A DNA stretch of 64,000 bases from an uncultured Alphaproteobacteria bacterium (GTDB lineage: Bacteria > Pseudomonadota > Alphaproteobacteria > Rhodospirillales > Defluviicoccaceae): assembly GCA_963786265.1 (NCBI GenBank), contig CAWAYT010000003.1, positions 2,152 through 66,151 on the forward strand, in the 5' to 3' direction. Below the pieces are notes generated by a model. It searched no databases. It was not told the DNA's origin and worked only from the letters and a program-made list of their open reading frames with translations. A program made the translations under genes and the position numbers. Below, piece after piece: positions 28,482-39,588 of this stretch (position 1 is the stretch's first letter; each line of letters opens with the position of its first letter).

Positions 28482-30280
28482 CTATCCCCCAAGAAGATAA
28501 CGCTTAATGAATGGTGTGGTAGCCTGAGGCTTAACGGGCACAAGCTGACTTCCGCATCTCTCGAAGTAAACACCATCATATTGGCTAGGGTCTTCCTGTG
28601 CCTGGGAATCAAATACATATACGGTACGATCATAATAGCGAACCGCCTTTAGGTTCCTAGCAAGATATCCGCGAAGAGGTTCAGAAACAGGAGAATTTCG
28701 GATCTTCTCGACAACCATGTTAAAAAATTGATCAGAATTCTTCTTGGATGTTAAAATTTCGTGATCTATGCCAGTGATAAAAATCCCCCGAACGTCCTTG
28801 GCTTTGTCCTATATAGCGATTCGACTCTGCTGGCTGTGGCTAGTTTATCAATAATACCGATGAGCACATACCCCCTTGCCCCTCGCATAATATTTGCAAT
28901 TCCCACACATGTCTGAAGTATTTTGGCGAAGCTATCGTTGTCGAACTGCGAAGATTGATCCAAAACTAGAAATCCCTGTTTGAAGTCATATGCATTCTGC
29001 TCGGTATACGATTGCGACAAAATATTTTCTAATTGGGTTACCCAATGTACTGTTGCGGGGTCTACAATGGTAGCCGGACCAAACGCCTTCCTATACATTC
29101 CGCATACGCTTTGCACAGTAGTCTGCCGAACATCGCTACCCCATCGACCTCCCTCAGGAATACTTATCTGGCTTCCATTGTCTCGCATCTTTTGTATCAG
29201 TAGATTCCTATCTGTAACCTCCATCTGCTCTCGTACGATCAGTTCGAAAAACGCCAAAAAAACAGCCTGAAAGTACCGAGGAGCCCTGGGTGGCTGTTTA
29301 CCGAAAAGAAGAACACCAAACGTTAAACCAGAACGTTCCAGTGTAAGTTTGATCTCGTCCAACGTACGTTGGAAGTCATTTACCACCAGCTCGGCGGTGC
29401 GCTTTTGAACGAAAAACTCGACTTCATTAAAGCGCGCATGTGAAGCATCATCATCACCCATACCGAAAAAATCATCGATGAACTCAGAACGAGAAGAAGT
29501 CGGGCTCTCACTCACCATGTACGCTACAATATCCGCTATTAATTCTTCATCGCGGCTTGCGCGAACCTGATCCTTGGTTAATATTCCTTGAGCTACCCAG
29601 AAGATATCGTCGACACTTATCCCATACGGTAATTCTCGATTTGTGATACTGATTTTTTTCATATCGTTTAGGCGTAGAAGGTCCGACGATGAATCGTCCC
29701 CACGCACTTTTGCCGCGATCTTTCGTACTACCTCTGCGAAATGGCCGGTGGAGCCAGCTGCGCGTAGCTCCTGCCTTGACAGCTTCCGTCCTCCGGAATT
29801 GATGCGTCGGAATACGGTATCGATGCTACCGACGTCCGCCGATTCGTATATGGACAGAGGGAGCAAGTAAGACGCTACCTGAACACACTTGTCGCGGGCC
29901 ATCACGGGTTGGCGCTGCTTAAGCTTGTCATCATCGAATAGGGCCTTTGTTATAGCCATTGTGTTCAGGTCGAAAAATGTGTCGTCAACTGCATAATCAT
30001 TTTCAATGAAGGACATAACAGCGTTTAGTCTCTGCATACCGTCGAGAATCTCGAAGGCATTTCGCCCCCTAGTCTTGTTCTCAGCCAGCAATATGATGGG
30101 GACAGGATATCCATGCAATATTGAGTCGATGAATGCGATCTTTTCATCTATAGTCCATATTAGTTTTCTCTGATAACGGCGGTTGACGAGGTATCTATTA
30201 TCGACGTAGTTGCCATAAGCGCGCTCGATTAATTCGCCACGAACCGTAAGATCTTGCGCCGAACTAGCGTCGGTGATCAT
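28482..30280 (-). CDS. DUF262 (GmrSD/ParB-like) protein with a C-terminal AlbA_2/Schlafen-like domain
   Basis: YQRKLIW, FIDSILHGYPVP, ILDGMQRL, FRRINSGG; then EQNAYDFKQG..CVGIAN..GYVLIGI; continues in 28482-28718 after a frameshift; low GC. Confidence 0.8.
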
Positions 30281-30519: not shown

Positions 30520-31311
30520 TCACTTCAGAAAGGCCGACAACACCGGTCGCCGCTCGACATGCTTCTGGACCGTGGCCCGCAGGCTGTCCATCGAGGCATC
30601 GAGATGGGCTGGCGTCAGATCGCCGCGCACCATGCCATATCGGAGAAAGACGCCGTAGGTTGCGAGCACGTCGGTCAGGCAGTAATCCGCCACTTCGCTC
30701 AGCCGGCCCGCTTCCACATAAGCCTCGACCTGACTGCCGTCGACGCCGTCGATCTTCACCGGAATGTCCGCCAGCGCCGCCATCTCGGCCAGGCTGGGCT
30801 TGGCTGAAGCACCATAGCCGGAGAGCACGTCGCAGAGATCGACGTGATCCTGTCCGAAGCGATGCCAGTAATCGCGACGACCACCGCCATGCAGCCCCGG
30901 CACCGGAACACCGAGTGCGAAGGCGCGATAGCGCAGCAGTGGCAGGTCGAAGCCGTTGCCGCCGAAGGTCACGAGGACCGGGCCGATCCCGCGGCCATCC
31001 ATCGGCAGGGCTTTCACGAAGCCGAGCAGCACCTCGGCCTCGGTCTTCTCCCCGACCAATCGGCTGCCGATCTGGGTCACCGTCCACGCGCCGCTGTCTT
31101 CCCGCTTGGCGTTGAGGGTGGCGATGCAGACGATCCGATAGATTGGCACCTTGAGGAATGCCGTCGTGGGATCCTCGCCATCGTGCGAATAGCGCTGGCC
31201 CAACAGCCGCCTGATCTCCGCATGGGGCATGCTGTCGGACTGGCCGAACAGGCGACGCGCCACCTCATAGTCGGGAACGGCCTCGATATCGAAAACAACC
31301 AACGTGGTCAT
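30520..31311 (-). CDS. Stand-alone DEDD 3'-5' exonuclease (PolB-exo-like)
   Basis: VFDIE, GNGFDLP, HVDLCD and YCLTDV motifs. Confidence 0.88.
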   Translation of the reverse strand: MTTLVVFDIEAVPDYEVARRLFGQSDSMPHAEIRRLLGQRYSHDGEDPTTAFLKVPIYRIVCIATLNAKREDSGAWTVTQIGSRLVGEKTEAEVLLGFVKALPMDGRGIGPVLVTFGGNGFDLPLLRYRAFALGVPVPGLHGGGRRDYWHRFGQDHVDLCDVLSGYGASAKPSLAEMAALADIPVKIDGVDGSQVEAYVEAGRLSEVADYCLTDVLATYGVFLRYGMVRGDLTPAHLDASMDSLRATVQKHVERRPVLSAFLK

Positions 31312-31644
31312 GGATCAATCCAATGCGTGACGGGAACCGTGCCGGAGCAGCACTTCCGACAACATCCAGGCCGAGGGCGCCGGGGATGGCGGCGAGCAGA
31401 TTATTTGCGATCGAACCTCTTGGTGGTCAGTGCCGGTTGGTCGGTCATGATCGACGACCCCGCCTCATCGTCTATAATTCTGCAGCGTCATCTCACCTCC
31501 GGACGCTGACGGGGATGTAATATCGATGTCCGCTTGACCTCGGTCTGCGAAAGCCGCAGTCATGAAACTCGGTTTCATCTCATCGGGGATGGCTTCGCGG
31601 AGTGCGCAGCCCGATCAATGGGCCGTGAGGGTCTTCGCGGAGGT

Positions 31645-31810
31645 TCTTATGCGGATCCGTATAAGATGCGGTGATAACAGGCGGCACGAGAGGTAACAAA
31701 TGGATTTTGAACGGATTTTCGGAGTTGCATGCGGCGCTTCATCGCGGGTTATACGAACCCGAACCCGGTTTTCCGCATCTTATGCGGATCCGTCTAATCA
31801 TGTGTTAGCC
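31645..31810 (+). promoter_or_regulatory. attI-like integron site with upstream repeats
   Basis: GTCTAAT-CATGT-GTTAGCC simple site; TCTTATGCGGATCCGT repeated at 31645 and 31778; 19-bp inverted repeat 31653-31671 / 31773-31791. Confidence 0.6.
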
Positions 31811-32820
31811 ACCACAGGAACACTTTGTGTCCAAACGCAAGACCCTACAGAAGACCCCACAGGAAGAGCGCGCAGTCGTCTTGGGTCAACCGAACAAGCG
31901 ACCCTACGGCGTACGGGTGCGCATTCACCTGCAGACTGCAGGCGCGCTCGGCTATGTTGAAGAGGTCTGTGTGTCTCTCCATACAGGTGCGTTCCTTTCA
32001 ATTGCGCCCACTCGTACCGCGCCTTGGGAAGGCGGGAAGAAGTACGTCGTCACATTGGAAGGCTTTCCTACGGCTGCCTCCGCTGAAGCGGCGGGCCGGC
32101 GCTTGGTTCAAGCGCTGCTCTGGGTGGCGGTAAGCACAGACGCACCACTCCGCCTCGAATACCTCAGTTACGTACCCGCCTCTGTGTTCGAGCGCAATCG
32201 CTCAACCGGCGCTACGTGCGAGGCCTACGCAGAGGTCGGCTATTCGCCCACGGTCGTACTGGGAGAGCTACAAGACGCATACGCGCTCCTTCCAGAGCCA
32301 GATAAGAAGCTTCTCCTGTCCATGGAAATCTTCTGCTCGGCGCGTCTCGAATTCGAGTTCAGAGGGCCATCTTCTTGACGCTCGTCTCTGCACTCGAGCC
32401 CCTCGCGCGCGAAGCGTCCCTTGGGGACAAGGTGGATGCGTTCGTCGCTGAATGCGTGGCCAAGCTGAAAACTTTGGGAGACATTCCGGCCGAACTTCGC
32501 GCTTCCCTTGAGGGTCGGCTGCTTAAACTGAGGAAGGAGTCAATCGGTCAAGCGCTAAGGCGCCTTGCGCGCGACACGCTACCCAATCAGCCAGACGCGG
32601 CGCAAGTGATAGACGAGGCATACGCCCTTCGTAGTCAACTGATCCACAGCGGCCTTCCAGCTGACCTCGACGTTGACCTTGACCGCGAGTCACGTGTTTT
32701 ATCGCGAATTATCAGGGACATATATGCCGGCATGCTCAACAGCAGCCTTGCGCGTGGTGGCTAACCCTTCCATCGAGTGGACAGCACCGGCAAGGCGGTG
32801 TCTGCCGCTCATGTCAAACG
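31805..32820 (+). mobile_element. Integron gene cassette
   Basis: Starts at G|TTAGCC; single promoterless ORF whose stop lies in the complementary GGCTAAC; ends at G|TTAG. Confidence 0.85.
31827..32764 (+). CDS. HEPN-domain protein (frameshift near 32355)
   Basis: LVSALEPL...ESIGQALR...YALRSQLIHSG (R-x4-H motif). Confidence 0.72.
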
Positions 32821-32826
32821 TTAGCA
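32759..32826 (+). other. attC recombination site, 68 bp
   Basis: GGCTAAC CCTTC CATCGAG TGGACAGCACCG GCAAGG CGGTGTCTGCCG CTCATG TCAAAC GTTAGCA; the L boxes pair with one extra C. Confidence 0.88.
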
Positions 32827-32959
32827 AGTAGCCCGGATTGCGTTGCTACGCGGCGTGCCGCTCGGTTCCGCTCTTGCCCCAATCGCAGACGCTACGGGCG
32901 GCGGCTTTGCACCATCTTCATGTCTCTTATTGGCAATCCTGCGCCGCTGTCCCAGCTGC

Positions 32960-33343
32960 CTATGCGGCGCCTCGCGGCAACAGTCTCTTGCGCTGCTCTT
33001 CCCATCCGCTCGGAATCGCCCCCGTCAGCTCCTCCAGCTGCATGCCCTTCGGCTGACGGCCGTCAAGGATCGCCTCAACGATGTCCGGCGCCAGCAGCGT
33101 CAGCCGCAGCAGCCGGTTGACGAAGCTGCGCGTGACGCCCTCCGCTTCGGCGATCTCGGCCGCCGACCGATACTTCCCCTCCTCCAGCATCCGCTTCCAC
33201 CGATGCGCCCGCGCCAGCGCGCGGATCAGCGTCTCGTCCGGCCGCGGCTTCGCCGGCGCCCACGCGTCGCCGCCGTCCGGCGCGATGATCACCTTGCGGC
33301 CGCCGCGGCATTTAAAGGTCGTCGGGATGCGGACGGTCACCAA
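32960..33343 (-). pseudogene. Serine-recombinase partner gene, copy A (5'-truncated)
   Basis: VRIP.TF.CRGGRKVIIAP..RALARAHRW..LRLTLLAPDIVEAILDG..WEEQR. Confidence 0.8.
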
Positions 33344-37950: not shown

Positions 37951-38372
37951 TCAGTTGATAATCTCGCGTTGTTCCTCCCACCCGTCCGGGATCGCCCGGG
38001 TCAGCTCCTCCAACTGCATCGCCTTCGGCTGCCGTCCGTCGAGAATCGCCTCGACGATGTCCGGCGCCAGCAGCGTCAGCCGCAGCAGCCGGTTGACGAA
38101 GCTGCGGGTGACGCCCTCTGCTTCGGCCAGTTCCGCCAGCCGATCGGTACCTGCCCTCCTCCAGCAACCGCTTCCACCGATGCGCCCGCGCCAGCGCGCG
38201 GATCAGCGTCTCGTCCGGCCGCGGCTTCGCCGGCGCCCAGGCGTCGCCGCCGTCCGGGCGCGATGATCACCTTGCGGCCGCCGCGGCGTTTCCAGGTCAT
38301 CGGGATGCGGACGGTGATCGTCGTGCCGTCGAACTCCCAATTCTGCCGGCGATCTTGCGCTTCGTCTCTCAT
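37951..38372 (-). CDS. Serine-recombinase partner gene, copy B (full length, frameshifted)
   Basis: ATGA-coupled to the recombinase stop; near-identical to copy A. Confidence 0.8.
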
Positions 38373-39429: not shown

Positions 39430-39588
39430 GGGGCATCCGGCGCCAGCAGCGTCAGCGCAACAGTCGATTCACGAAGCTGCGAGTGATGCCTTCGGTCTCG
39501 GCGATTTCGCCGGCCGACCGACATGCCCCATCCTCCAACATTCGCTTCCACAGGTGTGCCCGCGCCGGCGCGCGGATCAGAGCCGCTG
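39430..39588 (-). pseudogene. Serine-recombinase partner gene, copy C (degenerate)
   Basis: LIRAPARAHLWKRMLE..EIAETEGITRSFVNR..LTLLAPD. Confidence 0.75.

Follow-up and report, generated by a model that had tools for sequence, protein, structure and literature searches.

An Integron Remnant Retaining attI, One Gene Cassette, and the Tail of intI in a Defluviicoccus-Like Alphaproteobacterial Genome

Introduction

How does a single gene cassette, framed by integron recombination sites and without a working integrase gene, come to lie in an alphaproteobacterial genome? The question was raised by one locus in a stretch of DNA of 64,000 nucleotides (the window, whose positions are used throughout), which belongs to a MAG with a 3.6-Mb assembly. 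A preliminary description had read the locus as the head of a foreign integron, fixed in a prophage-like island, and had noted that integrons are considered very rare in Alphaproteobacteria. This rarity is documented in the literature: no integron, In0, or CALIN was found in 243 alphaproteobacterial genomes, which was called "extremely puzzling" (PMC4889954), and in a later survey the class had no more than six complete integrons (PMC9024848). The host was also correctly placed. Its genome is Defluviicoccus-like, Defluviicoccus being a member of the Alphaproteobacteria, the MAGs of its family are alphaproteobacterial, one relative considered below (G010) is of the same genus, and a GapR gene was found near the integron unit.

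Results and Discussion

The attC Site

The attC site is located at 32759-32826 on the forward strand. It is 68 nt long, inside the usual range of about 57-141 nt, and it was delimited by a covariance model match and by the boxes of attC(aacA4). The 5′ half is composed of R″ GGCTAAC (32759-32765), the spacer CCTTC, and L″ CAT(C)GAG, after which the variable stem begins, and the 3′ half of L′ CTCATG, the spacer TCAAAC, and R′ GTTAGCA (32820-32826). CAT-C-GAG pairs with CTCATG and leaves the C at 32774 (top strand) extrahelical, as had been proposed for the L box of a 68-bp attC, and the unpaired central spacer is present. In comparison with RYYYAAC and GTTRRRY, R″ and R′ are each 1-2 positions off the strict consensus, with AAC and GTT kept. 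As far as its sequence tells, the window attC is structurally complete.

For the covariance model, named R1, six attCs from annotated integrons were used, all from outside the present genome: those of VIM, aadA1, aac(6′)-31, and aacA4, taken from class 1 plasmids, and two from a Diaphorobacter plasmid integron. R1 matched 32759-32826 on the forward strand with 41.1 bits (E 1.2e-7), the sole match in the 64-kb window. When the whole assembly was searched, the window attC was the best of two matches (E 1.4e-6), the second being at another locus of this genome, C49. Shorter attCs were chosen for R1 because a MAFFT alignment including the 76-nt attCs of Stutzerimonas stutzeri misplaced the L′ box. 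A heuristic based on MFE folding with forced AAC/GTT closure overlooked even the window attC and was discarded. R1 itself is blind to the 85-nt attC of a further locus, C28, which is visible by eye, and gives weak scores for the S. stutzeri attCs, so that the attC counts obtained with it are lower bounds. At gathering thresholds, Rfam returned no attC family in the window, only a group II intron.

The ends of the window attC, CTAACCCTTCCATCGAG and CTCATGTCAAACGTTA, are those of attC(aacA4) and attC(aac(6′)-31). With attC(aacA4)/attC(aac(6′)-Ib) it shares CTAAC CCTTC CATCGAG on one side, CTCATG TCAAAC GTTA on the other, and the extrahelical position. The lengths are similar (68 nt in the window, 72 nt in the latter). 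The central stem-loop is unrelated to that of attC(aacA4), and so is the window cargo, which is no resistance gene.

The Cassette and Its Broken Gene

The integron gene cassette occupies 31805-32820 on the forward strand (1016 bp), from the TT of the R box of attI to the G of the attC R′ box. Both boundaries fall on GTT sites and are the points where the conservation of the flanks ends and resumes. The GTTAGCC at 31804 had been noted as the exact complement of the GGCTAAC at 32759. These coordinates are right, and the 7-nt complement is part of a perfect 12-nt inverted repeat, GTTAGCCACCAC (31804-31815) against GTGGTGGCTAAC (32754-32765); by a rough estimate, about 0.1 such pairs per 1.8 kb are expected by chance. 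The repeat looks like one attC stem split into its two halves by the opening of a circular cassette at G|TT.

The single cassette of the preliminary description is present, but its gene is not one reading frame. The first part (31827-32378, forward strand, 183 aa) covers an alpha/beta N-terminal domain and ends prematurely by a +2 frameshift; the second (32306-32764, forward strand) lies in a different frame and covers a HEPN-like helical domain. Alignment with homologues placed the frameshift at about 32349-32362, the frame breaking at ...ARLE|SSQRA.... It could be an assembly error. The stop codon TAA (32762-32764) lies within R″, as stated before for the inverse core GGCTAAC.

Homologues of the cassette ORF numbered 161, mostly of about 304-311 aa (a family of about 307 aa), with identities of up to 87% among those from metagenomes. 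One of them, 77% identical in amino acids, is the last of the 7 cassettes in an array of S. stutzeri (CP015641, L024), so the family does occur in cassette arrays. In S. stutzeri, an intI pseudogene and an attI precede the array, whose attCs are uniformly 76 nt long, and the homologous cassette begins with GTTAGCC and ends with GGCTAAC, as in the window. On the metagenome contig L026, a homologous cassette with window-type ends stands alone, after a large serine recombinase gene and at a joint that is not an attI; its 3′ joint is without GTT.

The attI Platform

Upstream of the cassette, the attI platform extends over 31629-31810 on the forward strand. Its limits are based on the conservation up to GTT and on homology to the region that follows the integrase gene in the metagenome contig L104. 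It is formed by a first site, the near-palindrome TCTTATGCGGATCCGTATAAGA (31645-31666); box 2, GCGGGTTATACGAAC (31744-31758); a third site, CCGCATCTTATGCGGATCC (31773-31791); the L box GTCTAAT (31792-31798); and the R box GTTAGCC (31804-31810). Besides GTCTAAT-N5-GTTAGCC, repeated half-sites TTAT(G/A)CGGATCC are present. The spacer between the L and R boxes measures 5 nt against 4 nt in most copies, and for this reason the window attI may be impaired.

Comparative junctions place the crossover point between G31804 and T31805. The conservation of the platform, about 190 nt, halts exactly at G|TT in the four copies of this genome and in relatives. The 5′ flank conserved up to GTT was seen at the window locus, at C38 and C28 of the same genome, and in G003, G015, G026, G010, and G002; at C49, a more diverged copy, the junction reads ATTGCGC, without GTT. 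At 99 further loci from other phyla, the heterogeneity likewise starts after GTT, and 75 of these have NTGTT after CTAATCA, followed by diverse cores of the GTTRRRY type. All 27 R1 matches at platform loci are on the platform strand, 24 of the 27 are downstream of the junction, and there are at most 3 per locus.

Taking into account these junctions and the homology to the L104 region after IntI, the GTCTAAT-N5-GTT stretch that had been called attI-like (31792-31798 and 31804) is indicated to be a true attI. A MITE or an IS200/IS605 end, considered as the origin of the 5′ flank on account of subterminal hairpins, was dropped, the flank being the region that follows an intact intI. A consensus scan for a cassette promoter Pc, which is uninformative for this host, gave one sigma-70-like site at 31451-31478 and none within attI.

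A Decayed intI Precedes the Platform

Between about 31470 and 31628 on the forward strand lies the decayed 3′ end of intI, about 150 nt that correspond to its last 50 codons or so and are frameshifted; the 5′ limit is approximate. It was recognized by translating the stretch and by aligning its DNA with the intact L104 intI and with copies that are less decayed. One frame reads LRGVRSPINGP* with the TGA at 31626-31628, where the window has GVRSPINGP* and L104 GVRSPVDGL*; upstream, in the shifted frame, ...HLIGDG stands against HVLNRG. The relic is so heavily decayed that it did not score with the IntI profile, and it was identified by its DNA homology to better copies and by the 10-codon in-frame tail.

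L104 encodes an intact IntI of 344 aa (TIGR02249, 493.6 bits, cut-off 265). Its stop codon lies about 146 nt before the platform core motif on the same strand, and the platform region follows directly. Considering that the window aligns with the end of this gene, 31470-31628 (approximately) is the stump of a co-oriented intI. IntI C-termini were found at the equivalent position in G062:C13 (TIGR02249 positions 277-313, E 1.7e-10), G025:C63 (250-311), and G026, and C-terminal relics also at the platform in L081 and L085. G026 has two longer intI pseudogenes; at least one of them (L021) carries the IntI-specific motif KYPNAP..W.WQ, and the second (L022/L023) precedes its own variant of the window-type attI architecture. 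No further intI remains were significant by tblastn and HMM at 31200-31470 or beside C28, C38, and C49. The earlier statement that no intI is present therefore holds for a functional integrase and fails for the gene, whose co-oriented 3′ end is still there.

Copies of the Platform in the Genome, the Family, and Other Phyla

By BLAST, the 280 bp that lie 5′ of the cassette recur in the same assembly at C38 (91%), C28 (81%), and C49 (about 75%). The unit is one of at least four diverged platform copies in this genome. The four loci are non-syntenic, 75-91% alike, and have different DNA downstream of each. The 5′ copies are conserved through ...GTCTAATCA(K)T-GTT and then diverge, into GTTAGCC in the window, GTTAGAT at C38, and GTTAGGC at C28. 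The 3′ copies are alike from aacG|TT on, and each has before that point its own attC, whose R″ reads GTCTAAC at C28 and GCCTAAC at C49. Judged by comparison of the copies, this pattern is the signature of different cassettes inserted in the same attI.

The conserved 3′ flank (32821-32945, forward strand, about 125 bp) begins precisely with the crossover TT. Its identity to the sequence behind the attC of C28 is 80%, C49 has a similar stretch, and further copies were found in G009, G010, G015, G017, and the metagenome contig L111, that is, only in the genus or family and in one related contig. According to these alignments, the flank adjoined attI until the cassette was inserted. At C38 the cargo is cut off by the contig end.

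The points at which intI is truncated on the left differ between the copies (about 31470, 31523, and 31545 in window numbering), which, together with the 75-91% likeness, favors several old platforms that decay independently over a recent duplication. C49 and the window have in common a 5′ fragment of the neighboring exonuclease gene, a hint of some segmental copying.

The platform was present in 11 of the 43 genomes of the family, distributed over 5 of its 9 genera, and one genome can hold as many as four copies. Platform loci of different genomes showed no synteny, the context being always different. A pattern search with the platform core returned 19 GTDB genomes and at least 120 metagenome contigs, from many phyla and nearly always without intI. 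All copies that were inspected closely (window, C28, C49, G026, G062, G025, and G010) have a recognizable attI and an attC cassette, and the integrase is gone. From these comparisons, the wider pattern appears to be that integron platforms recur in an alphaproteobacterial family in which the integrase is systematically lost.

Search for an Integrase

No TIGR02249 match above the cut-off was obtained in the present genome, which is 73% complete, and tblastn with the IntI of L104 found only Xer-like genes without the IntI extra domain. The assembly therefore encodes no IntI, in agreement with the earlier note, although an integrase could lie in the missing part of the genome or on a plasmid. TIGR02249 gave no match above the cut-off in the 43 genomes of the family, nor in 401 genomes of the order (136 genera). 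An intact intI beside the platform was seen in none of the 19 GTDB genomes that carry it (0/19). Of the retrieved metagenome contigs that extend far enough upstream, only L104 has a full intI; that of L093 is probably full but is cut at the contig start.

In the assembled genome, the lack of IntI leaves the unit frozen: cassettes can be neither gained, lost, nor shuffled unless IntI is supplied in trans. Since the cassette gene is broken as well, this is most likely inert DNA. A trans-acting IntI could still act on the unit, given a complete attC and an attI with only one spacer base more than the consensus.

Origin of the Unit

The reading that we consider very probable is that the region 31470-32945 (approximate at its left end) is what remains, frozen, of an "inverted integrase" chromosomal integron, in which intI is co-directional with the cassettes. 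The original order would have been intI, its stop codon, an attI of about 180 nt, and the cassettes. In this attI, a 7-6-7 palindrome would have been followed by a GTTATAC box, by the L box GTCTAAT with a second half-palindrome fused to its front, and by the R box GTTAG. Later, intI would have eroded to its last 50 codons or so and become frameshifted, while attI would have stayed essentially intact, bar the one extra base in the L-R spacer. The two G|TT joints would record one attI × attC insertion, with IntI as its presumed maker, and the cassette gene, which may have encoded a two-domain protein (alpha/beta and HEPN-like), would later have been broken by the +2 frameshift.

Different accounts of the same sites have to be weighed against this one. 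The four delta-intI/attI platforms might be live docking sites, distributed in the genome, on which an integrase from elsewhere acts in trans, its gene lying in the unassembled 27%, on a plasmid, or on a transient element. Such an account fits the DNA after the junction, which is different at each of the four platforms (among them HEPN-like, a TIR fragment, and haem-peroxidase-like), and the homology of the 3′ flank across the window, C28, and C49, the three complete units, so that the cassettes entered or were exchanged after the platforms had separated. It would also explain that attI and attC look structurally intact although intI is gone, and that more than 90% of the attI occurrences in other phyla are likewise without intI. 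We nevertheless regard it as improbable, considering that no IntI was found in the assembly or in the genomes of the family (43) and the order (401), that at least two cassette genes are broken (frameshifted in the window, a fragmentary TIR gene at C28), that copies 75-91% alike suggest age rather than activity, and that differing intI truncations are what independent decay would leave. Highly improbable is the proposal that no integron ever existed here and that the unit is a SALIN made by off-target insertion of a free cassette into an ordinary genomic attG. Single cassettes that lack an integrase occur commonly, this route has been shown experimentally (bioRxiv 10.1101/2022.09.11.507474), and the family of the window cassette does occur at a non-attI joint in L026. 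The window site, however, is a sequence of about 180 nt conserved across phyla; in L104 it comes after an intact IntI, in the window the tail of an intI gene lies before it, and attG sites differ greatly from attI in sequence and structure (bioRxiv 10.1101/2022.09.11.507474).

The preliminary description held that a prophage-like island had captured the head of a foreign integron. This is weighed here as one recent event, with, for example, a gammaproteobacterial or betaproteobacterial source. The cassette gene is clearly mobile between lineages, as seen from the homologues of 87% identity in metagenomes and 77% in Stutzerimonas, and the region is a mosaic that is non-syntenic with relatives. 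The neighbors of the unit are a low-GC GmrSD gene, a PolB-type exonuclease gene, and multi-copy recombinase relics; one of the relics (127 aa) starts at 32960, 134 bp after attC, and agrees with the recombinase-partner relic reported within about 140 bp. No phage genes were among the Pfam matches of the neighboring genes, which speaks against a prophage-like captor. The platform is spread over 5 of the family's 9 genera, its four copies in this genome lie in unrelated contexts with 9-25% divergence, and the 3′ flank is confined to the genus or family and one related metagenome contig. A single capture is on these grounds quite improbable. The reading as an orphan integron head, composed of attI, one cassette, and attC, is right.

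It is conceivable, if unlikely, that the platforms without intI are functional landing pads, dispersed with several in each genome for an integrase that is rarely resident and acts in trans, or the footprint of a purge of intI across the lineage that followed repeated entry of integrons. If one of these were true, the lack of integrons in Alphaproteobacteria would become a testable case in which integrons enter, intI is selectively lost, and attI and cargo stay.

Relation to Known Integrons

An "inverted integron-integrase" group, in which intI is co-oriented with the attC sites, has been described, for example, in Treponema (PMC4889954). The window unit is like this group in having the intI tail, the attI, and the cassette all on one strand, with G|TT joints and an attC with R″, L″, L′, and R′ boxes and an extrahelical base; its intact relative L104 has intI, attI, and co-oriented cassettes downstream. 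It differs in that intI is only a relic of about 150 nt, that there is one cassette, and that the host is alphaproteobacterial. A further difference is that the window-type attI, with its TTATGCGGATCC half-sites, is strikingly conserved across phyla; in the literature on integrons that we consulted, no description of this conservation was found.

A single attC and a cluster of attCs lacking an integron-integrase are termed SALIN and CALIN, respectively (PMC4889954; bioRxiv 10.1101/2022.09.11.507474). The window unit has one attC cassette and no integrase gene nearby or in the genome, and IntegronFinder would file it as a SALIN. In 95% of CALINs no recognizable intI pseudogene is nearby, and the definitions of SALIN and CALIN omit attI (PMC4889954; bioRxiv 10.1101/2022.09.11.507474), whereas the window unit retains both attI and the tail of intI. 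These show it to be the remnant of an integron rather than an attG insertion. The window element is, in short, an integron remnant that is formally a SALIN and keeps its attI and intI tail.

The S. stutzeri integron of CP015641 has in common with the window the 77%-identical cassette gene with its GTTAGCC and GGCTAAC ends, an intI pseudogene, and an attI in which GTCTAAT, 4 nt, and GTTAG follow TTATAC repeats. Unlike in the window, its intI is divergent from the cassettes, of which there are 7 with uniform 76-nt attCs, and the attC of the common cassette differs from that of the window in the center.

The platform stumps in 11 of 43 family genomes are direct sequence evidence that integrons reach Alphaproteobacteria and that it is the integrase gene which does not persist there. 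The idea that some unknown mechanism hinders the establishment of integrons thereby becomes testable. In addition, a highly conserved attI is now defined for a widespread environmental clade of integrons with co-oriented intI, and it can be used to locate platforms that tools based on intI or attC clusters likely overlook or class as SALINs.

Cargo of the Platforms

The AlphaFold2 model of the cassette protein (pLDDT 83.7) shows two domains, alpha/beta at the N-terminus and helical at the C-terminus. When residues 150-301 (approximately) were compared with 48,161 chains, the six best were mostly labelled HEPN, as toxins or domain proteins, with Z between 9.6 and 7.9, which falls in the grey zone taken for helical bundles (Z < 13). 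An R-x4-H motif, RSQLIH, is encoded at 32630-32647, and its R263 and H268 are invariant across 41 homologues. Pfam and PADLOC gave no match for the cassette protein, a HEPN profile included, and Foldseek against the PDB returned nothing. The grey-zone fold match and the motif together suggest that the C-terminal domain is likely a HEPN domain, and the cargo probably functions as an RNase.

At C28 the cargo is a TIR-domain fragment beside an nSTAND1 NTPase gene, and at C49 it is a haem-peroxidase-like gene. The HEPN-like and TIR cargo and the adjacent STAND NTPase fit the view that cassettes carry defense or toxin functions.

Conservation of the attI Platform

The attI platform, a region of about 190 nt (TTATGCGGATCCGYATAAGA ... 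GGCGTGTTATACGG ... CCGCATCTTATGCGGATCCRTCTAATCAYTGTT), is conserved across many groups, as was seen in the GTDB and metagenome loci L071-L169. Its hosts there were Nitrospira/Nitrospirota, Nitrospinota, deltaproteobacterial MAGs, Planctomycetes, and Phycisphaerae, together with Gemmatimonadota, Calditrichota, Kiloniellaceae, and Cypionkella. Among the occurrences having enough upstream DNA, an intact intI was missing in >90%. A co-oriented attC was found upstream of the platform in three loci (L114:82-147, L071:5550-5610, and L134:746-802, in oriented coordinates). In L114 this attC is followed by about 150 nt and then by a truncated platform, as might result from the transfer of an attI fragment into an array.

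Platform Copies and Integrase Remnants in the Genome and Its Relatives

The genome of the window (G000) holds a second platform copy on the minus strand of contig C28 (G000:C28:31100-32353, locus L015), whose cassette contains a fragmentary TIR-domain ORF. Its attC, of about 85 nt, was not detected by the covariance model R1, built from six known attCs. With an 823-aa nSTAND1 NTPase as its divergent neighbour, this platform appears to sit in a defence locus. The third copy, more diverged (G000:C49:19100-21560, locus L017), carries a haem-peroxidase-like cargo of 467 aa. Judging from N-terminal sequences only, its two flanking genes probably encode a glucokinase and a zinc-type alcohol dehydrogenase. 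In the DNA upstream of this third platform, a stretch of 67 nt duplicates, at about 93% identity, the 5′ end of the PolB-type exonuclease gene neighbouring the window unit.

Two integron-integrase pseudogenes were present in G026, a relative of the same family. The one at G026:C2:256383-256955 (L021) keeps the IntI-specific motif and has lost its N-terminal part, with an IS110-like transposase gene upstream. The other (L022/L023, G026:C2:1034138-1035058) is close to full length, with a frameshift and a stop, and has the variant attI GCTTATACAGACTGCATAAACATT|GTTAGGA after it.

The HEPN-like cassette, the cargo family of the window unit, was also found as a lone insertion just 3′ of a large serine recombinase gene (597 aa) in ENA contig k141_1084896 (L026:9714-11000). 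The cassette ends, GTTAGCC/GGCTAAC, are those of the window unit, and the 3′ joint (…CAGACG|CTCTGC) is without GTT. This insertion looks like an off-site (attG-type) event.

Surroundings of the Unit in the Window

Directly after the integron unit there is a 127-aa "ParB-HTH-like" recombinase relic (32960-33343, minus strand). It is multicopy: copies with 83-92% identity occur on contigs C18, C38, and C46, two more lie in the window (37962-38315 and 39436-39580, the latter a partial match of 146 bp), and another is located beyond the window on the same contig, C3. Five relatives have one to four copies each. A patch of 45-50% GC, in a genome of about 65% GC, contains a restriction gene of the GmrSD type (DUF262; 28766-30280, minus strand), which lies two genes upstream of the integron stump. 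The sole Rfam hit at gathering score within the window was a group II intron match (RF00029, 12386-12460, plus strand, 45.8 bits).
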